The notes beneath the pieces are model-generated. The model worked only from the letters and a program-made list of their open reading frames with translations. It made no database searches and was not told the DNA's origin. From positions 573 through 64,572 of the forward strand of contig VBAL01000114.1 in NCBI GenBank assembly GCA_005888595.1: a stretch of 64,000 nt of DNA. The letters are read 5' to 3'. The position numbers were made by a program, and so were the translations under genes. Within the stretch, counting starts at the first letter, position 1, and each line of letters begins with the position of its first letter. Source of the DNA: Candidatus Segetimicrobium genomatis. GTDB taxonomy: Bacteria; Sysuimicrobiota; Sysuimicrobiia; Sysuimicrobiales; Kaftiobacteriaceae. This document shows, piece by piece, positions 5,762 through 62,979 of this stretch.

Positions 5762-6116
5762 CTAGGGTTCATCGGTGCCTGGCACCGATGAAGAAAAAAT
5801 AACTCGATTGGCATCAGGAGAATGACCCGGTTGGGTCATTGACGTCAACACCTACTCGTAGGGTTCATCGGTGCCTGTCACCGTCGATCCAGCGAGTCAT
5901 CGGTGTCAGGCACCGATGAAGCAAAAGGGGCTCGATTTGGCTATCGGAGAATGACCCGGCTAGGTCATTGTTGCAGGACCAGTCTGGTTGAGCCTATCCA
6001 GCGGCGCGATAACAGCGAGTGAGACTGTTCACGGTGCCAAGGCACCGATGAAGAAAAAATGGCTCGATTGGCTATAGGAGAATGACTCGATTGGGTCATT
6101 GACGCAAACACTTACT
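5762..6116. repeat. three tandem copies of a ~95-105-bp structured repeat (copy A 5762-5857, copy B 5858-~5976 with expanded stem-loop and divergent tail to ~6026, copy C ~6027-6116)
   Basis: Each unit has hairpin 1 TTCATCGGTGCC-N-GGCACCGATGAA (12-bp perfect arms; copy B arms ~20 bp with 13-nt loop), then GAAGAAAAAAT, then GGCTCGATTGG, then hairpin 2 AATGACCCGGTTGGGTCATT, then CAACACCTACTCG. Copy C overlaps the TAA stop of the TIM-barrel gene at 6112. Confidence 0.85.
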
Positions 6117-11585: not shown

Positions 11586-12428
11586 TCATCCTCTGACGGC
11601 GCCGGCGGTGAGGCCGGCCACGTAGTGATCCAAGAAGAGCGAGAACAGCACGACCACGGGCAGCGAAGCCACCAGCGCGCCGCCCATCAACGATCCCCAG
11701 TAGAAGAAGTCCCCGCGGATCAGATCGACGACGACGCCGGTGGTCACGGTCTTGAGGTCGGTGGTGGAGATGAACGTCAGCGAGTAGATGAACTCGCTGT
11801 AGGCCAGCGTGAACCCGAAGAGCGCGGCGGTGATGATCCCCGGCCGCGCCAGGGGCAGCACCACGTGCCGCAATGCCCCCGCGCGGGTGCACCCGTCGAC
11901 GAGCGCGCTCTCCTCCACGTCCCGCGGGATCGTGGTGAAGTACGCGGTGAGCATCCAGGTGGCGAACGGCACCATGAACGCCGGATAGGTGACGATCAGG
12001 GACCACAGCGTGTTGGACAGGTGGAATAGGGCCATCAAACGCGCCAGCGGCAGGAAGAGCAGCGTGGTCGGCACCAGGTACACGATGAAGACGAAGGTCG
12101 TCGTGGCCTCGGCCAGCGGGAACCGCAGGCGCGCCAGGGCGTACGCCGCCAGCACGGCCAGCACCACGGAGACGACCGTTGTGGTCGCCGCGACCACGGT
12201 TGAATTGCGCAGCCACAGCGGGAAGGCCGTGTGCGTGAACAGGAAGTGGTAATGCTCCCAGGTGATGCCGGCGCGGACCAGGAAGGGATTCTGCGCCAGA
12301 TCGTAGAGTTCGACGTCTTGCTTCAGCGACGCCACAAGCATCCAGATGAACGGGAAGACGGCGAAGATCACAAACGGCGCCGCCGTGAGGTAGGCGATCG
12401 CGACCCGCCGCCGCGATGACCTCACCAT
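11586..12428 (-). CDS. carbohydrate ABC transporter permease (MalG-like)
   Basis: 6 TM helices. EAA loop DGCTRAGALRHVVLPLARPG. 7-nt overlap with upstream permease. Confidence 0.85.
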   Translation of the reverse strand: MVRSSRRRVAIAYLTAAPFVIFAVFPFIWMLVASLKQDVELYDLAQNPFLVRAGITWEHYHFLFTHTAFPLWLRNSTVVAATTTVVSVVLAVLAAYALARLRFPLAEATTTFVFIVYLVPTTLLFLPLARLMALFHLSNTLWSLIVTYPAFMVPFATWMLTAYFTTIPRDVEESALVDGCTRAGALRHVVLPLARPGIITAALFGFTLAYSEFIYSLTFISTTDLKTVTTGVVVDLIRGDFFYWGSLMGGALVASLPVVVLFSLFLDHYVAGLTAGAVRG

Positions 12429-38681: not shown

Positions 38682-39338
38682 TTAGTCGGGGAAGAACTCC
38701 GGGCCTCTGTTCTTGAAGCGGTTGATGAAATTGACGATCGCGGCCTCATCGTACTGGTCCAGTTTCATCAGGTGGGTCCAGGCGGCCACGGCAATGCGGC
38801 TGTCGTTCTTTGGACGCAGAGTGATGATGACCTTCGAGCGGTAGCGCCGGGACAGCGCCACCAGCTTGTTGATCACCTCAGTATCGTCCGCGCTCTTGAA
38901 GCTGATCCAGATCCCGCCGTGCTCCAGGTTGTGGACAACGAGTTCGTCGGGGAGTTCCCCGTTGTAGTAGCCCCACTCTGCAGGCTGTGGGAAGTGCCAG
39001 CCCGACGTCGGCGGGTCGGAGTTGTAGGACGGATGCTGCTGTCCGGGAAAGATGTGTTCCCGGCCCTGTTCGGGGTAGTCGATGACGTTGAGCTTCGGCT
39101 GTCCGGCCACGCCGGCGGTGGTCGATGTGGAGTTCGCTCGTACGGCGCCCCACACCACCCACGCCACGACACCCAGCACCAGCACGCCGGCGGCGGCGAA
39201 GATGCTCATCCTCCGGCGGCGGGCGCGTTCCTGCCGTTCCGTCTCCTCGGCCTTGCGCTGGTGTCGCGCCAGGCGGCGGAGTTCTTTCTTCCCCAACGGT
39301 CTGTCCACGGAATCCCTCGATCGCGCTACGTCTACCAT
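38682..39338 (-). CDS. membrane-anchored hypothetical protein (DUF3105-like)
   Basis: Basic N-terminus, one TM helix (IFAAAGVLVLGVVAWVVWGAV), extracytoplasmic domain with HNLEHGG motif. Family call from memory only. Confidence 0.5.
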   Translation of the reverse strand: MVDVARSRDSVDRPLGKKELRRLARHQRKAEETERQERARRRRMSIFAAAGVLVLGVVAWVVWGAVRANSTSTTAGVAGQPKLNVIDYPEQGREHIFPGQQHPSYNSDPPTSGWHFPQPAEWGYYNGELPDELVVHNLEHGGIWISFKSADDTEVINKLVALSRRYRSKVIITLRPKNDSRIAVAAWTHLMKLDQYDEAAIVNFINRFKNRGPEFFPD

Positions 39339-39501
39339 GTCTTCCAGGTCTACTGCGTCACTTTCCTCCGAGGCTCTTTAGGTAGACTCGGGAGACATGG
39401 CAGACCTGGTAGACGCAGTCGCCAATGGGAACAGTCTGTCAGAAACTGCGGGTCGAATCAACGGCGGGGAAAAGCCGGCGCGGCCTGGAACTTGGGTTCT
39501 G

Positions 39502-41268
39502 ATGGTCATCCGTAGCGTGGTCAAGCCAAGCGCCTACTTTGACTCGGTGACGCTCATGCTCGTGCAGCGCGAAGTGCGCCAGCTTCCAGATGTTGAGGAA
39601 GCCGGCGCGGTGATGGGTACGGACGCCAACAAAGAACTGCTGCGCGACGCCGGCCTGCTGACATCTGAGGCACAGGCTGCGCGGCCCGACGATCTGATCC
39701 TTGCCGTGCGAGCCGGCAGTGGCGAGGTGGCGTTCGCCGCGCTCCGGACGGCTGAAACACTGCTCGTGCAGCGGCGTGAGACCGCGGCCACCGGCACCTA
39801 CCGGCCTAAGACTGTCGCATCGGCGGTCCGGATGCTGCCCGGCGCCAACCTGGCGCTCATCTCGGTGCCCGGCCGTTTTGCGGCGGGGGTGGCGAGAGAT
39901 GCGCTGGCCGCCGGGCTGCACGTCATGCTGTTCAGCGATAACGTGACTCTTGATGCCGAGATCGAGCTCAAGCAGACGGCGACGGCACGCGGGCTGCTGA
40001 TGATGGGACCAGACTGCGGGACCGCGATCATCGGCGGCACGGGTCTGGGATTTGCCAACCGTGTGCGCCGTGGCACGATCGGGATTGTCGGAGCGGCCGG
40101 CACGGGCATCCAGGAGGTGGCGTCGCTGGTGCACCGCGGGGGCGCGGGGATATCGCACGCGATCGGAACCGGCGGCCGCGACGTCAGCCGGGCGGTAGGG
40201 GGCCTGACTGCGCTAGTGGGTCTCACGGCGCTGGCCGCCGATCCCGGGACAGAGGTCGTCGTCCTCATCTCAAAGCCACCGGCATCCGAGGTCGCCGGAC
40301 GGCTGCTGGGTGCGGCACGGCATCTCCGCAAACCAGTCGTGATCAATTTCGTCGGGGCATCGGTGGCCAATGACGGGCCCCTGCACGGCGCGCACACGCT
40401 GGAAGAGGCGGCATCCCAGGCGGTGACCCTGGTGACCGGGGCGCCGCCCCACTGGCCTGAGTGGGAAGCGCTGCCGGCGCAGGAAGCCGGCCGGCTCGCG
40501 CCCACGCAGAAATTCATGCGCGGATTGTACAGCGGCGGCACGTTGTGCTATGAGGCCCTGATCCTGCTGCAGCGGTATGTCGGGCCGGTGTATTCGAACA
40601 CGCCGCTGGATCCAGACTATGCGCTGGAGTCGGCGACGCGCAGCCGGGCGCACACCGTGATCGATATGGGCAGCGACGAATTCACCGTGGGCCGCCTCCA
40701 TCCGATGCTAGATCCAGAACTGCGCCACCGGCGGTTGCTTCGCGAGGCGGACGATCCGGAGGTCGCGGTCATCCTGCTCGACGTGGTGCTGGGCCACGGG
40801 GCGCACCCGGACCCGGCCCGGGACCTGGCCCCGGTGATCCGGCAGGCGCGCGAGCGCGCACGGAGAGACGGCCGCTGGCTCCCGGTGGTGGTCTCCGTGT
40901 GCGGCACCGATGAAGACCCGCAGGGATACGAGGCCCAGGTGGCGGCGCTCCTCGACGCCGGCGCCACGGTGCAGGCGTCGAATGCGCGGGCGGTCCGCCT
41001 GGCTGGCCTGATTGCGGAAGCCGCAGGAAGCAAAGGCAGCCCGCGCCCGCCGCTGGCAATCCCCGTCCCGTCGCAGCCGCAGTCGCTGCCGGATGCCACG
41101 CATGTTCTCCAGTTACTCAGCGGTCCGCCGCGCGTCATCAACGTCGGCCTGGAGTTGTTTGCGGAGAGTCTGATCACCCAGGGCGCGGAAACCCTGATGG
41201 TGGACTGGCACCCGCCGGCCGGAGGCAAGCAGAAGTTCATTGACTTGCTGGACAAACTTGATGCCTGA
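39502..41268 (+). CDS. fdrA: FdrA-family protein (CoA-binding, succinyl-CoA-synthetase-alpha-like; AllF-type)
   Basis: ATG 39502 (MVIRSVVKPSAYFDSVTLML) matches the FdrA N-terminus pattern. CoA-binding Rossmann (GIVGAAGTGIQE) and ligase-CoA domain. ORF track start 39397 is an N-extension. Confidence 0.7.
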   Translation: MVIRSVVKPSAYFDSVTLMLVQREVRQLPDVEEAGAVMGTDANKELLRDAGLLTSEAQAARPDDLILAVRAGSGEVAFAALRTAETLLVQRRETAATGTYRPKTVASAVRMLPGANLALISVPGRFAAGVARDALAAGLHVMLFSDNVTLDAEIELKQTATARGLLMMGPDCGTAIIGGTGLGFANRVRRGTIGIVGAAGTGIQEVASLVHRGGAGISHAIGTGGRDVSRAVGGLTALVGLTALAADPGTEVVVLISKPPASEVAGRLLGAARHLRKPVVINFVGASVANDGPLHGAHTLEEAASQAVTLVTGAPPHWPEWEALPAQEAGRLAPTQKFMRGLYSGGTLCYEALILLQRYVGPVYSNTPLDPDYALESATRSRAHTVIDMGSDEFTVGRLHPMLDPELRHRRLLREADDPEVAVILLDVVLGHGAHPDPARDLAPVIRQARERARRDGRWLPVVVSVCGTDEDPQGYEAQVAALLDAGATVQASNARAVRLAGLIAEAAGSKGSPRPPLAIPVPSQPQSLPDATHVLQLLSGPPRVINVGLELFAESLITQGAETLMVDWHPPAGGKQKFIDLLDKLDA

Positions 41269-41269
41269 C

Positions 41270-41362
41270 GGAATTTCGGATTGCGGATTTCGAATTGCGG
41301 ATTTGAACGGCCGGGGATTTCAATCCGCAATCCACAATCCGCAATCCGAAATCGGGAGTGCG
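41270..41362. promoter_or_regulatory. large imperfect hairpin built from ATTGCGGATT-type repeats between fdrA stop and the DUF1116 gene start
   Basis: Left arm ATTTCGGATTGCGGATTTCGAATTGCGGATTT (41274-41305), loop TGAACGGCCGGGG, right arm ATTTCAATCCGCAATCCACAATCCGCAATCCGAAAT (41319-41353). Followed by GGGAGTG RBS and ATG 41365. Confidence 0.7.
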
Positions 41363-41364
41363 TG

Positions 41365-42603
41365 ATGACCATAGACGAAGCCAACCAACTCGCCGTGAAG
41401 CGCATTCTGGACAGCCAGCCCATCCTGGTCGGGATTGCGCCCGCCGCGGAGATGATCCCCGGGATGCGGCGCAATCTGATCCTCCACGCCGGACCGCCCA
41501 TCACCTGGGACCGGATGTCGGGACCTCTTCGCGGTGCAGTCATCGGCGGGCTGATCTTCGAGGGGCTGGCCACGGATGAATCGGGCGCCGTGCGGCTGGT
41601 GGAGCAGAAGCACGTGCAGTTCGCGCCATGCCACCACCATGGCGCCGTCGGGCCGATGGCCGGCGTCACAACCGCGTCGATGCCCGTGTATGTGATCGAG
41701 AACCGGGCGTTTGGCACCCGCGCCTATTCCAACCTCAACGAAGGCTACGGAAAAGTGCTGCGCTACGGGGCATATGGCGAAGAGGTGCTGGCCCGGCTGC
41801 GCTGGCTCCGCGACGTCTACGCGCCCATCATGGGCAAAGCGCTGGAACGGTCAGGCGGGCTGGACATGAAGAGCCTCATCGCTCAACAGATCCAGATGGG
41901 TGACGAGGGACACAATCGCAACAAAGCCGGAACGGCGCTGTTCGCCCGCCTGCTGGCTCCGCACCTGGCGCGCACGGGGACGCGCACGGATGACCTGGCC
42001 GCCGTGCTGACTTATCTCGCGGAGAATGATCTGGCGGTGCTCAACCCTGTGATGGCCGCCTGCAAAGCGTCCATGGATGCCGCGCACGGGATCGCTGGGA
42101 GCACCGTGGTGACGTGCATGGCGCGCAACGGGACCGAGTTCGGCATCCGCGTCAGCGGCCTGCCGGACGCCTGGTTTACGGCGCCGGCAGAGATTCCGGT
42201 CGGGCTGTTCTTCCCCGGTTTCACCCAGGACGACGCCAACCCGGATATCGGCGACAGCACGATCACCGAAACGGCCGGCATCGGCGCATTCGCGATGGCC
42301 GCCGCGCCGGCGATCGTGAAGTTTGTGGGCGGAACCCCGTCGATGGCGGTGGAGTCCACGCTGGAAATGTACGAGATCACCGTCGCGGAAAACCCCGCCT
42401 TTGGCATCCCGCAGCTGGATTTTCGCGGTACACCCACCGGGATCGATATCCGCAAGGTCGTGCGTACCGGGATCACCCCCCGCGTCAATACCGGCATCGC
42501 CCACCGCAAGGCGGGAGTCGGGCAGATCGGGGCCGGGTTGGTGCGGCCGCCGATGGCGTGCTTCGAGCGGGCGGTGGAGGCGTTTGCCGCCACACTCGCG
42601 TGA
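41365..42603 (+). CDS. DUF1116-domain protein (YlbE/AllG-like partner of FdrA)
   Basis: ATG 41365 (MTIDEANQLAVKRILDSQPILVGIAPAAEMIPGM). 412 aa. Co-located downstream of fdrA as in fdrA-ylbE clusters. Family call by recollection of DUF1116 architecture. Confidence 0.6.
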   Translation: MTIDEANQLAVKRILDSQPILVGIAPAAEMIPGMRRNLILHAGPPITWDRMSGPLRGAVIGGLIFEGLATDESGAVRLVEQKHVQFAPCHHHGAVGPMAGVTTASMPVYVIENRAFGTRAYSNLNEGYGKVLRYGAYGEEVLARLRWLRDVYAPIMGKALERSGGLDMKSLIAQQIQMGDEGHNRNKAGTALFARLLAPHLARTGTRTDDLAAVLTYLAENDLAVLNPVMAACKASMDAAHGIAGSTVVTCMARNGTEFGIRVSGLPDAWFTAPAEIPVGLFFPGFTQDDANPDIGDSTITETAGIGAFAMAAAPAIVKFVGGTPSMAVESTLEMYEITVAENPAFGIPQLDFRGTPTGIDIRKVVRTGITPRVNTGIAHRKAGVGQIGAGLVRPPMACFERAVEAFAATLA

Positions 42604-47094: not shown

Positions 47095-47308
47095 CCGTGT
47101 CCTTCGTGTCTTCCCTTGGTCCTTCGTCCCCTGGTCCCTGGTCCCCGTCGTGTGTCCGTGAGGGCAGGGTTCATCCCCAGGGTGTCGTACACAGACGCTG
47201 TCGCGCAGTCGCGCTGTCGGGCAGTCAGGCGGTCGCGGACACCGGCCATTCCGCGACTGCTCGACCGCGCCGCTGCGCGACCGCGACGCATTTCAGAGGT
47301 GATGACCT

Positions 47309-49326: not shown

Positions 49327-49462
49327 GCAGAGTCTACCCAGTCTCCACAGTCTTCACAGTCTCCCCAGTCCGCCACCCCCTGGTTCATCTAGACATGTTG
49401 ATGTCTTAGACCGAGTAGACTGTGTAGACTGGGTAGACAGGGTAGACTGGGCGTCATAGGCG
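49327..49462. promoter_or_regulatory. large imperfect hairpin built from CAGTCTC / TAGACTG heptad repeats between CoA-transferase stop and accDA start
   Basis: Left arm AGTCTACCCAGTCTCCACAGTCTTCACAGTCTCCCCAGTCC (49331-49371). Loop contains nested palindrome CTAGACATGTTGATGTCTTAG. Right arm GAGTAGACTGTGTAGACTGGGTAGACAGGGTAGACTGGG (49413-49450). ATG 49463 follows. Confidence 0.7.
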
Positions 49463-51238
49463 ATGACCACGACGAAGTGCCCAAGTTGCGGAACTGAGCA
49501 CGCTGCCGATACATTGGCGAAGGTGCTGTACGTCTGCCCCCGCTGCGGGACGTACCTGCATATGCCGGCCCGCGAGCGCATCATGATGCTGGCCGATCCG
49601 CGCGCGTTCAAAGAACTGGACCGCGGCCTGGTCTCCGTCGACCCATTGCGCTTTACGGATCAGCGCTCATACCGTGAGCGGCTGGCCGAGGCACGGCGGC
49701 GGACCGGGTTGCGCGAGGCCGTGGTGATCGGTGAGGCGCGCCTCGAGGGCAGACCCGTCGTCCTGGTCGTGTTCGACTTCGACTTCATGGGCGGGACGAT
49801 GGGTTCGGTGGTAGGAGAGAAAGTCGCCGACGCGTTCGAACACGCCACGCGCCGCCGTTGGCCGGTGGTCAGCGTGGTAGCCAGCGGGGGCGCCAGGATG
49901 CAGGAAGGGATGCTCTCCCTGATGCAGATGGCCAAGACCGCGGCCACGCGGGCCGGGCACGACCGGGCCGGACTGGCCCACATTGCGGTTCTTACCGATC
50001 CCACCTTCGGCGGTGTCGCGGCGAGCTTTGCCTCCCTGGCCGACGTTCTCATCGCTGAACCCGGTGCGGAAATCGGGTTCGTAGGGCCGCGGGTAATCGA
50101 CCTGACCCTCAACGAGCCGCAGCCCGCCGATTCCCACCGCGCCGAGGCCCTCTTCCGTGCCGGCATGGTCGATCTCGTCGTCGGGAGGCCGGAGCTTCGC
50201 GCCACGGTAGCCTTTCTGGTCGGCCACCTCAGCCGCCCCAGCGCCCGGCGCGCGCGTACGTTACCCGGACGTGCCGGCGCCGGTGTGATCCGCAGCGTCC
50301 CGGAGCAATCGCCTCCGCCGCCGTGGCACACGGTGCAGCTGGCGCGCCATGCCGGCCGCCCGACGTCCCTGGAATACATCACGCGGCTATTCGCACGGTT
50401 CGTTGAGCTGCACGGCGACCGGCAGCTCGGCGACGACGCCGCGATCGTATGCGGGCTCGGCGAACTGAAGGGGCAGACGGTCGTCGTCGTCGCGCAGGAA
50501 CGAGGCCGGACCGACGAGGAGCAGGCGCAGCGCCGGCGCGGCAGGCCGTTTCCCGAAGGATACCGCAAAGCCCTGCGCCTGATGCAACTGGCGGCGAAGT
50601 TCGGGCTGCCGGTGGTGACGCTGATCGACACGCCGGGGGCCTATCCCGGCTACCAGGCGGAACAGCGCGGCATTGCCCAGGCCCTCGCGCACAATCTCCA
50701 GGCCATGGCGTCCCTCCCGACGCCGATTGTCAGCGTGGTGATCGGCGAAGGGGGCAGCGGGGGGGCGCTGGCGCTGGGCGTCGCAGATCGCGTCCTCATG
50801 CTGCAGAACGCGATCTATTCCGTCATCTCCCCGGAGGGCGCGGCGGCCATCCTCTTCCGGGACGCGGCCAGGGCCCAGCAGGTGGCCGAGGCGCTGAAGA
50901 TTACCGCCGACGATCTCCTCCGTCTGGGGGTGATCGACGGGATTGTTCCCGAGCCCGAAGGCGGCGCGCATACCGATGCCGACCTGGCCGCGCGACGGCT
51001 TGGCGGCGCGCTGCAGGCGACGCTGCGCGACCTCACCCGGATGAGCGTCGATACCCTCTTGCGCCGGCGCTACCAGAAGTACCGGCACATCGGCAAGGTC
51101 GGCGTCTACTGGCGTCAAGTTGTGCGCCGCGAGATGCAGGAGCTCTTGGATGCCCTTGAGCAACGCCTGCTGCGGCGCGAGCATGGGGCCGGGCCGGATG
51201 AAGATGTCCGCCGGCGGAAAGATCCCGCGGCCCAGTAG
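49463..51238 (+). CDS. accDA: acetyl-/acyl-CoA carboxylase carboxyltransferase, fused beta (AccD) and alpha (AccA) subunits
   Basis: N-terminal Zn-ribbon CPSCG...CPRCG and AccD crotonase-fold region (residues 1-~290). C-terminal AccA region (~300-591) with GGSGGALALGV oxyanion-hole motif. Confidence 0.8.
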   Translation: MTTTKCPSCGTEHAADTLAKVLYVCPRCGTYLHMPARERIMMLADPRAFKELDRGLVSVDPLRFTDQRSYRERLAEARRRTGLREAVVIGEARLEGRPVVLVVFDFDFMGGTMGSVVGEKVADAFEHATRRRWPVVSVVASGGARMQEGMLSLMQMAKTAATRAGHDRAGLAHIAVLTDPTFGGVAASFASLADVLIAEPGAEIGFVGPRVIDLTLNEPQPADSHRAEALFRAGMVDLVVGRPELRATVAFLVGHLSRPSARRARTLPGRAGAGVIRSVPEQSPPPPWHTVQLARHAGRPTSLEYITRLFARFVELHGDRQLGDDAAIVCGLGELKGQTVVVVAQERGRTDEEQAQRRRGRPFPEGYRKALRLMQLAAKFGLPVVTLIDTPGAYPGYQAEQRGIAQALAHNLQAMASLPTPIVSVVIGEGGSGGALALGVADRVLMLQNAIYSVISPEGAAAILFRDAARAQQVAEALKITADDLLRLGVIDGIVPEPEGGAHTDADLAARRLGGALQATLRDLTRMSVDTLLRRRYQKYRHIGKVGVYWRQVVRREMQELLDALEQRLLRREHGAGPDEDVRRRKDPAAQ

Positions 51239-60389: not shown

Positions 60390-60411
60390 ATGAGCTCCCC
60401 TCGAACGGGTA

Positions 60412-60488
60412 GAACGCAGAATGCAGAAGGCAGAACGCAGAGGGACCCTAGCTGTCTGCGTTCTGCGTTCTGCGCTCTGCGTTCTGCG
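60412..60488. terminator. imperfect hairpin built from GCAGAAC hexa/heptamer repeats overlapping the stop codon of the gene at 60448 (candidate terminator/attenuator ahead of the DMT gene)
   Basis: Left arm GAACGCAGAATGCAGAAGGCAGAACGCAGAG (60412-60442), loop GGACCCTAGCTGT containing the TAG stop (60448-60450 on minus), right arm CTGCGTTCTGCGTTCTGCGCTCTGCGTTCTGCGG (60456-60488). No T-tract. Confidence 0.5.
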
Positions 60489-61326
60489 GAAGCAGAGCGT
60501 CTAGCGTCAGCAGAAATCCTGCGAGCATGTCAGAGCCGGAGGTCTCGCCAAATGCCATGACTCCGCGCGCGGCGATAGCGATACGTTCGGCCTCATGCGA
60601 CGCTAGTGCGGCAACAAGCCGGTGCCAGGATTCGCTGGCCTCTCCGCGCGCTGCGGCCTCGAGGTAGGCCATGCTGATGCGGGTCGTCCGATCGCGCACG
60701 GCAGAGATGATGGCCTGACGCATCACGCGTGAGTCATCAGCATGCAGGGCAAAGGCAAGCAGGCCTCCCACGAGGACATCATCGCCTGAGGGAGTCAACC
60801 CCGGGCCCATGCCGGCCAGTGCGCCCGCGGCACGGCTTACCAGAATCGCGTCACGACGCTGCAGTCCACGAGCCAGTTCCACGATCGCCGCCTCCGCCCG
60901 TCTCTCCAACGCCGTCGTCGACGCATTCGGACGACTCACGGCTCGGGCAAGTCCACCTTCCGGGGCCTCCATATCGAGCAGGCGCTGCAGTGTTGGTAAA
61001 TGACGGCGGAGTGTGGGGAACTGTTCTTCCGGCCATGCTCGCAGCGTGGCGTCCCAGACGGCTGCATCATGCAGTCCGATCTCAATGCCGCTGGAGGCCG
61101 CGACGGCGCCTGGGGCGACTCGATCCTGCCAGGCGTCCATCTCGACGACGAGATTCAGCGGGCCGTTCAACAATGCGGGCGCGACGAGGGCGACGATCTG
61201 TCCATCCAGGTTGAGGTAGCAACTCCGATCATATGTCGCGAGGACGTTGCCCCGGTGAGGCTCAATGAAGAACCCGGCAAGCCGTCGACTGACAGACAGG
61301 ACCCGCAGCAACGCCCTCGCTCTCAT
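60448..61326 (-). CDS. hypothetical protein translationally coupled (ATGA) to the upstream Xdh/Cox small-subunit gene; possible maturation/accessory factor
   Basis: ATG 61326 (MRARALLRVLSVSRRLAGFFIEPHRG) overlaps the coxS-like stop. 292 aa. No confident family. ORF track start 61593 is an N-extension into coxS. Confidence 0.5.
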   Translation of the reverse strand: MRARALLRVLSVSRRLAGFFIEPHRGNVLATYDRSCYLNLDGQIVALVAPALLNGPLNLVVEMDAWQDRVAPGAVAASSGIEIGLHDAAVWDATLRAWPEEQFPTLRRHLPTLQRLLDMEAPEGGLARAVSRPNASTTALERRAEAAIVELARGLQRRDAILVSRAAGALAGMGPGLTPSGDDVLVGGLLAFALHADDSRVMRQAIISAVRDRTTRISMAYLEAAARGEASESWHRLVAALASHEAERIAIAARGVMAFGETSGSDMLAGFLLTLDALLPQNAERRTQNADS

Positions 61327-61994
61327 GTTCGCGTTTCCGCGCTCCGCCCCGAGCCGGCGTGGGGGTTTCCGTGCTTGCGCGCCCCGCCGCCCCGAGCCCG
61401 CGGAACGGGCGTGGGGGTTGCCGTCCCCACTCGCTGCGCCGCGTCGGAAACCGCTTCGACAATACCCTGGTAGCCGGTGCACCGGCAAAGATGACCCGCC
61501 AGCGCTACCCGGATTTCGTCGGCGCTCGGGCTGGGACACTCGCGCAAGAATGCGAGGGTCGTCATCAGAAATCCCGGGGTGCAGAAGCCGCATTGCAACC
61601 CATGGTGATCCCGGAACGCTTCCTGAATCGGATGCAGCCGGTCCGGCGTGCCCAGCGCCTCCACGGTCATGATCTCCTCACCGGCAGCCTGCACGGCGAA
61701 CATCAGACAGCTCCTGACCGGCGCGCCGTCGAGCAGAATGGTGCAAGCCCCGCAGACCCCGTGCTCGCACCCGACGTGCGTGCCGGTGAGCCCCAGGTGC
61801 TCTCGGATGAAGTCCACCAGGGTCATCCGGACCTCTACCTCAGCGGTCTGGGCGACCCCATTCACCTGCACGGTGATCTCTTTGCGCGTCACAAGCGGCG
61901 GGGCCGCCGCCTCCGTGCGCACGGGATTTCCCCGGCGCGCCGTCACAACCCGCGCCTTCGTTGTTCGCCTGACCACGCCCGTGCGCTTCTTCAT
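61323..61994 (-). CDS. (2Fe-2S)-binding small subunit of a xanthine-dehydrogenase/CO-dehydrogenase-family molybdoenzyme (CoxS/XdhC-like)
   Basis: Plant-type ferredoxin Cys cluster GCEHGVCGACT and second cluster QCGFCTPGF...CRCTGY. Start uncertain (ATG 61994 gives ~35-aa N-extension relative to typical CoxS). Confidence 0.8.
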   Translation of the reverse strand: MKKRTGVVRRTTKARVVTARRGNPVRTEAAAPPLVTRKEITVQVNGVAQTAEVEVRMTLVDFIREHLGLTGTHVGCEHGVCGACTILLDGAPVRSCLMFAVQAAGEEIMTVEALGTPDRLHPIQEAFRDHHGLQCGFCTPGFLMTTLAFLRECPSPSADEIRVALAGHLCRCTGYQGIVEAVSDAAQRVGTATPTPVPRARGGGARKHGNPHAGSGRSAETRT

Positions 61995-62097: not shown

Positions 62098-62979
62098 TCA
62101 TCGCATTCTCATCTGTTTCATCCTGGCCCGTTCCGCCGCTGCCTGTATCGCGCGCCGTGCCAGGACCCCGGCCACTTCTTTCCGGTACTCCGCGGACGCA
62201 TGGATGTCGCCGGTCGGGTCAATGGTGTGCGTCACGAGTTTTCCCAGTTCAGCCAGGACCCCGTCGGTGACCATCTTGCCGGTGACCACCGCTTCGGCGT
62301 CAGGAATGCGGACCGGGACCGGCCCCACGCCGGTAAAGGCCAACCGCGCCCGTTGGCAGACGTTTCCGGCCATGGTCACCACCGCCCCCACGCCGACCAG
62401 GGCGTAGTCGCCGTGCCGGCGTGCCACTTCCAGGAACGCAGCGCCTTGTTGTTCGTGCGCCGGGAACCGCACTTCGAGCAGCAACTCGTCCGGTTCCAGG
62501 GCCGTTGTGAGGTACGAGACGAAGAACCCGTGCGCCGCCACGCGACGCGTCCCCCCAGGGCCGCGGACGACGACGCTGCCCTCCAGCGCGGCCAGCACCG
62601 CCGGCAACTCCGCAGACGGATCAGCGTGCGCGATGTTGCCGCCTACCGTCCCGCGCGTGCGAATCTGGAGATGCCCCACCAGCGGCAGTGCGTCGGCCAG
62701 CAGCGGAAGCCTTCGCGTCACGACCGGCGAGCGCTCTGCCGTGCGCTGCCTCGTCATCGCGCCGATGGCGATCTCGCCGTTCTCTTCGCGGATGTAGTCG
62801 AGTGTTTTCACGCGGTTGAGGTCGATGATCACCGACGGGCGCGCCAGCCGCATATTCAGCAACGGGACCAGACTCTGCCCGCCGGCGAGCAGCTTCCCCT
62901 CGGCCCCGTGGGCGTGCAGCAGTGCCACGGTTTCCTCCACGGACTCCGGCGCCGCGTATTGAAAAGGGGCCGGTTTCAT
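62098..62979 (-). CDS. FAD-binding medium subunit of xanthine-dehydrogenase/CO-dehydrogenase-family enzyme (CoxM/XdhB-like)
   Basis: FAD_binding_5 N-terminus (FQYAAPESVEETVALL...LLAGGQSLVPLLNMRLARP) and CO_deh_flav_C region. 293 aa. Confidence 0.85.
   Translation of the reverse strand: MKPAPFQYAAPESVEETVALLHAHGAEGKLLAGGQSLVPLLNMRLARPSVIIDLNRVKTLDYIREENGEIAIGAMTRQRTAERSPVVTRRLPLLADALPLVGHLQIRTRGTVGGNIAHADPSAELPAVLAALEGSVVVRGPGGTRRVAAHGFFVSYLTTALEPDELLLEVRFPAHEQQGAAFLEVARRHGDYALVGVGAVVTMAGNVCQRARLAFTGVGPVPVRIPDAEAVVTGKMVTDGVLAELGKLVTHTIDPTGDIHASAEYRKEVAGVLARRAIQAAAERARMKQMRMR

Follow-up and report, generated by a model that had tools for sequence, protein, structure and literature searches.

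We identified a long hairpin built of tandem heptamers in a 64,000-nucleotide (nt) stretch of Candidatus Segetimicrobium genomatis DNA (contig VBAL01000114.1; the whole stretch is called the window below). It occupies the spacer between an fdrA/allF-like gene and allG, the gene for the AllG (DUF1116) subunit of oxamate carbamoyltransferase. We consider it probable, at roughly 60%, that this hairpin belongs, as a dispensable copy, to a widespread family of heptamer quartets, and that its probable effect is that of a generic RNA barrier. What is new here is the repeat unit, ATTKCGR; repeats of this kind are already known and are mechanistically unexplained.

The inverted repeat has two 31-nt arms that are 90% complementary and enclose an 18-nt loop. 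Repeat searches and Tandem Repeats Finder (TRF) placed the G-rich left arm at 41273-41303 and the C-rich right arm at 41322-41352, with the unique spacer TGAACGGCCGGGGATTTC between them (41304-41321, from the sequence and the fold). With its immediate flanks (41266-41367) the region reads TGA-cgga-(ATTTCGG ATTGCGG ATTTCGA ATTGCGG ATT)-tgaacggccggggatttc-(AATCCGC AATCCAC AATCCGC AATCCGA AAT)-c-GGGAG-tgcgtg-ATG, so that the left arm consists of four heptamers plus ATT. TRF gave period 7 in both arms, together with a 14-nt super-unit, ATTTCGAATTGCGG, at 94% matches; therefore, the unit is the heptamer ATTKCGR, with 4.4 units per arm. A first-pass annotation of this DNA had instead described three direct repeats of a decamer in each arm, but its decamer, "ATTGCGGATT", is one unit followed by the first three bases of the next. 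The 93-bp hairpin that it reported is present with a core of 80 nt, and the 93-nt span takes in a weaker alternative register. The long stem and the G-rich loop (7 G among 18 nt) described in the same place were both confirmed.

The stem begins 4 nt past the TGA stop codon of fdrA/allF (41266-41268, + strand, from the sequence and the table of open reading frames (ORFs)) and finishes 1 nt ahead of the allG Shine-Dalgarno sequence GGGAG (41354-41358, + strand), which is followed by the allG ATG at 41365; the ribosome-binding site (RBS) and start codon had thus been correctly placed close downstream. The fdrA/allF-like gene (39502-41268, + strand, 588 amino acids (aa)) has Pfam domains CoA_binding and Ligase_CoA, and allG (41365-42603, + strand, 412 aa) matches PF06545 with E = 1.7e-97, in agreement with the initial naming of both genes. 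The 588-aa length and an additional HMA_AllF_N domain were taken from gene calls on the near-identical contigs L081 and L082.

RNA folding of the hairpin region, which had been proposed as a check, predicted a stable, self-contained stem with a minimum free energy (MFE) of -45.9 kcal/mol (z = -3.4), and none of 200 shuffled sequences was as stable. The corresponding DNA fold had -29.3 kcal/mol (z = -5.6). A simple hairpin detector found four hairpins in the window versus none in each of 12 Markov-1 simulations. The stem at this junction is 31 bp long and AT-rich. No T-tract follows it, as had been observed before, and scans for consensus terminators and sigma-70 promoters called nothing at the hairpin, which has none of the features of an intrinsic terminator (short GC-rich stem, 3-8 nt loop and U-tract). 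In a search of the whole window against Rfam 15, no covariance model reached its gathering threshold; sub-threshold matches at the hairpin, on both strands, involved only eukaryotic miRNA-precursor models, because this is a generic long hairpin. A single arm has no internal dyad symmetry except for a TTCGAA core, and it begins with (R)ATT, not with GTAG or CGTC.

The AllG protein was identical on four other contigs. Two of them (L082 and L084) had the identical hairpin and two (L081 and L083), which came from other samples, lacked it. In the latter, an 18-nt spacer, TGA-CGAAATCGGGAGTGCGTG-ATG, takes the place of the 96-nt spacer of the filled allele; it retains the Shine-Dalgarno sequence and differs from the window by a clean 78-nt indel. 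The alignment places the missing segment at 41271-41348, and it may equally be placed at 41269-41346, with a 2-nt CG repeat flanking it. Outside the indel, L081 and the window were 99.93% identical over 7.2 kb. Therefore, the hairpin is dispensable and the event that separates the two alleles is very recent: what lies at allF-allG is an insert of recent gain or loss and not a regulator that evolved for these two genes. CGAAAT, with which the right arm canonically ends in phase, is left in the empty allele, and the endpoints of the indel fall within an imperfect direct repeat at the base of the stem (CGGAAT..CGG / CGAAAT..CGG). Because of these two features, the empty alleles most likely represent slipped-strand deletions across the palindrome base rather than a virgin target site. 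The haplotypes do not polarize the indel, as L083 is recombinant and the other contigs are near-identical. Positions 1-279 of L083 correspond to 40996-41274 of the window; the last ~90 nt of its fdrA and the whole of its allG are window-like, and further upstream it has 13 differences from the window in 270 nt, about half of which are shared with the relative L001.

A genome scan with AllG returned 80 loci. The closest was L001, labeled "Bacillati bacterium ANGP1" (97% aa identity), followed by metagenome-assembled genomes (MAGs) labeled CSP1-3 or "Armatimonadetes". In most relatives with fdrA directly upstream, the fdrA-allG spacer was 4-15 nt long and had no hairpin. The first-pass annotation had named absence from all orthologous loci as the result that would speak against a role for the element; absence was nearly complete, but L001 had a hairpin at the matching site, built from GGGATCS units instead of ATTKCGR. 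Two further loci (L008 and L013) had one-armed arrays of the GGGGACTA type in this spacer.

The same arm was found at many unrelated places. A metagenome scan with an exact 23-mer of the left arm retrieved at least 120 contigs; among the matches listed, these had 106 distinct flanks and GC contents of 36-71% (median 57%), and originated from soils, sediments, lakes and groundwater. A host label was obtained, from cluster names, for one of seven proteins on family contigs, and it was a Nitrospirota MAG. An inverted arm of 14 nt or more was present at no fewer than 58 of the 106 non-redundant loci among the matches listed, with medians of 25 nt for the arm, 44 nt for the loop and 0.90 for complementarity. 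Overall, about half of the family copies were convergent pairs, and single-arm copies were frequent. Loops were mostly unrelated: 57 of 66 were distinct, copies that share one contig also differed, and a comparison of loops with flanking DNA revealed no enrichment of copied sequence over the null.

The outer ends of the arms were phased: among the matches listed, 88 of 106 arrays had their first matched base at phase R, G or A of the unit, which places it on ATT or immediately ahead of it. Arm length peaked at 30-34 nt (four units plus ATT), the same as in the window hairpin. Arrays without query words contained three units in 31 cases, four in 75, five in 9 and six in one, and the four-unit mode is therefore real. 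Pairs were oriented >< in 76 cases, including the window copy, <> in only 3 and >> in 20, although a pair in the reverse order would form an equivalent hairpin. Direct repeats at the boundaries of 76 elements were not above a shuffled null, and thus gave no indication of target-site duplication (TSD). Mismatches within stems were mostly T.C and G.A, which we read as pairings of G- and T-variant units; for this reason the two arms read as independent mosaics of unit variants, not as decayed perfect copies of each other. Taken together, the fixed arm length, phased ends, G-first polarity and identity across phyla point to a polar, sequence-specific spreading process.

Family copies were mostly located 0-16 nt past stop codons, and several came straight after tRNA genes or stop codons. 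By a crude ORF caller, on which all gene-context statistics are based, pairs were found between co-directional genes in 20 cases, convergent genes in 8 and divergent genes in one, versus a background of 213:64:48, and 13 of the 20 co-directional pairs began no more than 16 nt past the upstream stop codon. Among single arrays, the G-rich and the C-rich strand served as sense strand at a ratio of about 2:1. A large class of arrays called as lying inside ORFs is probably inflated, because the units are free of stop codons in all six frames.

To compare units within one uniform collection, we counted IMG/VR stretches with exact three-unit arrays. (ATTGCGG)3 was present in 58 stretches, versus 24 for the published Nostoc unit, (GGGGATT)3, 7 for the L001 unit, (CGGGATC)3, and one for (AGAACGC)3; the composition-matched controls (AGTGTCG)3 and (GTTACGG)3 gave 5 and 13, respectively, and a 9-mer, AGTCTCCAC, counted at 2.4 units, gave 2. 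These counts make ATTGCGG an unusually abundant unit. Arrays of arbitrary heptamers were also far above chance. Of the 234 tandem arrays in the 1.65 Mb covered, 184 had period 7.

Several unusual arrangements of these repeats were observed. In L096 (58-600; also in L175), a ~94-nt block composed of an ATTKCGR array, a spacer and a partial inverse array occurred in about six tandem copies, a higher-order repeat made from the family. In some IMG/VR contigs (L251, 4548-4694; L213, L248 and L256), single four-unit ATTGCGG arrays were numerous, with one for each gene immediately upstream of ATTGAA, a Shine-Dalgarno sequence and ATG, and one contig had a 21-unit array. Contigs of the L251 type are possibly good systems in which to find a factor that reads or writes the repeat. 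Other contigs (L098/L100, L193, L206 and L145) possessed intergenic mosaics of adjoining heptamer arrays with different units, such as AAAGGGG, ATTGCGG, GGCAGNA, TCTGCKT, GGTGTCA and GAGTCCT.

When transcribed, the arm pair at allF-allG would fold into a self-contained 31-bp stem that would bring the stop codon and the Shine-Dalgarno sequence back together and leave accessibility of the RBS unchanged. The filled allele and its natural, empty counterpart were each folded within three sequence contexts. On average, the Shine-Dalgarno sequence was unpaired with a probability of 0.20, 0.39 and 0.23 in the filled allele and 0.19, 0.26 and 0.37 in the empty one, and in the predicted folds the hairpin was an autonomous module with the same surrounding structure in both alleles. 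GGGAG lies outside the stem and its predicted accessibility is similar with and without the hairpin, a pattern that is not that of a sequestered RBS. The expected outcome would be generic: a barrier to 3' exonucleases, a substrate of RNase III or a partial terminator between the cistrons, with a modest shift in the ratio of the two transcript halves. A generic influence of this kind on RNA stability, processing or termination would be the most likely effect, and there may be no effect at all.

Tandem heptamers have been described in several bacteria. Rehm et al. (2015, PMC4692102) reported GGGNATC and GGGGA(C/T)T arrays in Xanthomonas and Nostoc, mostly transcribed, over-represented in non-coding DNA and between co-oriented ORFs near stop and start codons, and under-represented between divergent ORFs. 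The GGGNATC repeats had a preference for four units and formed ~70 convergent pairs per Xanthomonas genome, which are potential stem-loops (PMC4692102). The ATTKCGR family has several features in common with these repeats: head-to-tail heptamers, the four-unit preference, convergent pairs and placement in non-coding DNA, mainly between co-oriented genes and rarely between divergent ones. A rotation of its unit, GCGGATT / TCGGATT, is one or two bases away from the Nostoc unit GGGGATT. There are also differences. ATTKCGR units carry at most GG, with only one G in the third unit, ATTTCGA, so that the arm lacks the four tracts of at least three G needed for a G-quadruplex and a three-tetrad structure cannot form. 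ATTKCGR is not confined to one genus but is found in Nitrospirota, in an ANGP1/CSP1-3-like lineage and in many unidentified hosts. For ATTKCGR we quantified the polarity (76:3), the phasing of the ends and the lack of TSDs, none of which we found reported in PMC4692102.

A similar case is TAACTGA, a direct repeat in Beggiatoaceae, Cyanobacteria and Bacteroidetes (MacGregor 2015, PMC4679880), which occurs in 2-6 copies mostly a few nt upstream of start codons, in 169 direct sets versus one indirect set (PMC4679880). Like ATTKCGR, it is a specific heptamer common to distant phyla that forms short arrays and has no known mechanism of spread. In contrast, its unit is different and about half of the ATTKCGR copies are convergent pairs. 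Heptanucleotides were the most abundant long simple sequence repeats (SSRs) in most prokaryotic genomes surveyed by Mrazek et al. (2007), as summarized in PMC4679880. Prokaryotic long SSRs and the cyanobacterial short tandemly repeated repetitive (STRR) sequences resemble ATTKCGR in the dominance of period 7, intergenic location and variation of copy number among relatives. However, these accounts treat the arrays as slippage products of any length, whereas ATTKCGR has a fixed ~31-nt arm with defined phase and polarity. The unit sequences of STRR are not known to match ATTKCGR. Judging from the instance cited in PMC4692102 (Calothrix), STRR hosts are cyanobacterial, and the ATTKCGR hosts are not cyanobacteria. 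A literature search with the unit words (ATTGCGG, its rotations and complements) gave only primer noise and nothing relevant.

Several other explanations were considered. One, which we regard as unlikely, holds that the arrays are binding sites of a conserved nucleic-acid-binding protein, with four heptamers forming one site and a convergent pair two. It is consistent with the four-unit mode and the fixed ~31-nt arm, with a unit sequence that is the same across phyla and viral contigs, with the single four-unit arrays located directly upstream of a Shine-Dalgarno sequence and ATG in several contigs, and with the ~2:1 bias for the G-rich strand as sense; moreover, heptamer repeats of Nostoc are reported to have modest effects on reporters, and a binding partner has been postulated (preprint, bioRxiv 10.1101/2022.06.06.494920). 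On the other hand, a candidate protein is lacking, many other heptamer units occupy comparable sites and each would need its own factor, the paired form buries the sites in a very stable stem, and the element is dispensable at allF-allG.

It is distinctly unlikely that the element is a non-autonomous mobile element, in which the arrays would be terminal inverted repeats for a transposase encoded elsewhere. Two kinds of known element are relevant. Repetitive extragenic palindromes (REP) of Proteobacteria, including bacterial interspersed mosaic elements (BIMEs) and the REP doublets that form hairpins (REPINs), are extragenic, often just past stop codons, and occur as singles or as inverted doublets that form long hairpins; they are thought to stabilize mRNA 3' ends or to act as terminators, have no TSD and are polymorphic among strains. 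MITEs (miniature inverted-repeat transposable elements) such as Correia elements are 50-190 nt long with inverted termini, form long RNA hairpins, are intergenic and co-transcribed, and are present or absent depending on the strain. The ATTKCGR family resembles REP and REPIN sequences in its extragenic location after stop codons, its occurrence as single arms or as inverted doublets that form long hairpins, its putative action on mRNA 3' ends, the lack of TSDs and its presence polymorphism. However, a REP unit is an imperfect palindrome of 20-40 nt with a GTAG/CGTC head, whereas the ATTKCGR arm is a non-palindromic tandem array, and the spacer of REPINs is conserved within a family, whereas ATTKCGR loops differ even on one contig. 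Similarly, the family shares short length, terminal inverted repeats (31-nt arms with phased outer ends), long predicted RNA hairpins, location between genes, presumed co-transcription and presence/absence polymorphism with MITEs, but differs from them in having no TSD, no conserved internal sequence and frequent single arms.

Mobility would be in line with the phased ends, fixed arm length and >< polarity, the presence/absence polymorphism at allF-allG, the spread across phyla and to viral contigs, and the occurrence of related tandem-heptamer hairpins within a coding region of Thermoflexus. Nevertheless, boundary repeats did not exceed the shuffled null, internal sequences all differ, even within one contig, many copies have a single arm that, unlike REP, is not palindromic, each arm seems to be a mosaic of unit variants in its own right and not a copy of its partner, a reading that the predominant T.C and G.A mismatches support, and the empty allele does not correspond to precise removal of the element at its ends. 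The classical form of this idea, a MITE, was ruled out by the combination of no TSD and unconserved loops.

A more speculative idea, to which we give still less weight, is that (ATTKCGR)4 modules are "written" by a dedicated polar enzyme and are not products of slippage. Such a writer might, for example, carry out templated extension of 3' ends at a nick or break, in a telomerase-like or target-primed reverse-transcription-like manner, laying down the G-rich strand outward from the flank. If both ends of a break were extended in this way and then rejoined, the G-rich arm would come first on both strands, as in the 76:3 polarity. Writing at breaks would also account for the fixed ~31-nt module, phased outer ends and independent mosaic arms, for unrelated filler loops, single-arm copies and the lack of TSDs, and for occasional in-frame insertions into genes and a unit common to distant phyla and viral contigs.

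The first-pass annotation had suggested dedicated control of allF-allG, for instance translational coupling, in which the stem would block the allG RBS until the ribosome that finishes allF melts it. We consider this very unlikely. The location would fit, with the stem beginning 4 nt downstream of the stop codon and GGGAG lying 1 nt beyond its end, and the MFE fold adds a few pairs between GCCUGAC (stop codon included) and part of GGGAGUGC. However, weak outer pairing of this type is also predicted without the hairpin, and the modeled accessibility of the Shine-Dalgarno sequence is about the same in the hairpin-free allele; the coupling idea is therefore not supported. In addition, the hairpin is missing in most orthologues and in L081 and L083, which encode an identical AllG, the same arms follow tRNA genes and recur at over 100 loci unrelated to this one, and the family as a whole occupies hundreds of loci.

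Purely local origin, by replication slippage and arm-to-arm template switching in a native spacer, is highly improbable for this hairpin. It would agree with several properties of other hairpins in the window, whose units are site-specific, with the difference by whole units in both arms of the 39326 hairpin between the window and L001, with the apparent swapping of unit variants between arms in alleles of the 49331 hairpin, and with the dominance of period 7 (184/234 arrays), which prokaryotic long SSRs share according to the summary in PMC4679880. On the contrary, the identical arm sequence at more than 100 unrelated loci, the phased ends with a sharp four-unit mode and the 76:3 polarity do not agree with it. 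Origin of the ATTKCGR hairpin by slippage in situ is largely refuted by the exact arm 23-mer in at least 120 unrelated contigs. Local slippage may apply to the 8- and 9-nt-unit hairpins of the window. Finally, an artefact of short-read assembly is scarcely credible: inverted repeats can confuse de Bruijn graph assemblers, but the window and two independent assemblies (L082 and L084) had the identical hairpin, two other independent assemblies (L081 and L083) had the identical empty allele, and the 31-nt arms are shorter than the final k-mers (k141 in contig names).

Some observations weigh against the view that the allF-allG hairpin is a dispensable family copy acting as a generic RNA barrier. 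Selection for any hairpin does not explain the polarity bias, which hints at a DNA-level or mechanistic cause. Stem mismatches on the sense strand included 14 G.U and 8 A.C, an excess that was not significant and thus gave no sign of selection on the RNA form, and the role of the hairpin in RNA is one that we purely infer. Orthologous copies in other lineages were 0.83 identical, compared with 0.85 for their coding flanks (9 pairs), and this near-flank rate of evolution could reflect some constraint. The direction of the 78-nt indel follows from sequence logic and is not proven. In addition, the window contained a single ATTKCGR copy in 64 kb, which bears on abundance of the family in the host genome.

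At the allF-allG locus itself the hairpin matters little, and since natural strains exist with and without it, it should not be annotated as a regulator specific to this operon. Of broader significance is the family: one heptamer unit is common to distant bacterial phyla and viral contigs and outnumbers the published Nostoc unit in IMG/VR (58 versus 24 stretches), and neither slippage, classical transposition nor simple selection for hairpins accounts for its strict polarity, fixed module size and phased ends. Repeats of heptamers have been on record since the STRR reports from cyanobacteria and the SSR survey of 2007, without a mechanism. The quantitative signatures described above, together with the filled/empty pair at 99.93% identity, provide handles for probing function and origin. 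Gene calling is also affected, as such hairpins overlap gene ends (allH) or sit in frame within genes (the CoxM-like gene of Thermoflexus).

Four further hairpins in the window had arms of short tandem units, with a different unit in each. Strain variants of these hairpins were found via 393-aa and 276-aa gene calls; look-ups of the carboxyltransferase and EamA genes for strain variants returned only the same scaffold. The first hairpin (39326-39418, 9-nt units GTCTACCAT) lies in the divergent DUF3105/fdrA intergenic region, and L001 differs there by whole 9-nt units in both arms. The second (47196-47285, 8-nt units CGCAGTCG), upstream of a cyclase gene, has a conserved counterpart in L001, from which it shows 3 differences. 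It is adjoined at 47112-47146 (- strand) by a one-armed array whose G-rich units are 7-8 nt long and, on the sense strand, of the GGGACCA type, just upstream of the Shine-Dalgarno sequence and ATG of a HAD-hydrolase gene; this array has diverged in L001 (about 11640-11690) although the adjoining hairpin is conserved.

The third hairpin (49331-49451, 9-nt units AGTCTCCAC) is located between CoA-transferase and carboxyltransferase genes, with a diverged allele in L088 and a recombinant one in L091. Together with the first ~65 nt of the carboxyltransferase gene it forms a block of high divergence (49331-49530) among otherwise identical strains. In the recombinant allele of L091, the left arm resembles that of the window and the right arm and gene start resemble those of L088, and some gene callers then place the carboxyltransferase start 33 codons downstream. 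The fourth hairpin (60411-60488, 7-nt units AGAACGC) overlaps the 3' end of allH (60448-61593, - strand, Pfam PF11392), which encodes the third oxamate carbamoyltransferase subunit and lies ~19 kb from allF-allG. Here, the last dozen or so allH codons and the stop codon are inside the hairpin, so that both the C-terminal tail of the protein and the stop codon come from the repeat.

The remaining intergenic regions of the window had ordinary GC-rich, terminator-like stems. A different repeat family was observed in an 821-nt intergenic region, where two copies of a ~80-nt module (5765-5945) carry the palindrome TTCATCGGTGCC(T)GGCACCGATGAA, present in three copies in all, and end in GGAGAATGACCCGG. 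Outside the window, three Thermoflexus genomes (L031, 7545-7602; L034, 7533-7600; L033, about 2030) had an in-frame heptamer hairpin inside a CoxM-like gene for a flavin adenine dinucleotide-binding subunit, built of GGATTGG / GGATTAG units and their complement. Over 20 homologues from Anaerolineae lacked this insert of ~26 aa, as did the homologue in the window (62143-62979, - strand), and the three genomes differed in the length of the insert by 7 and 9 aa.

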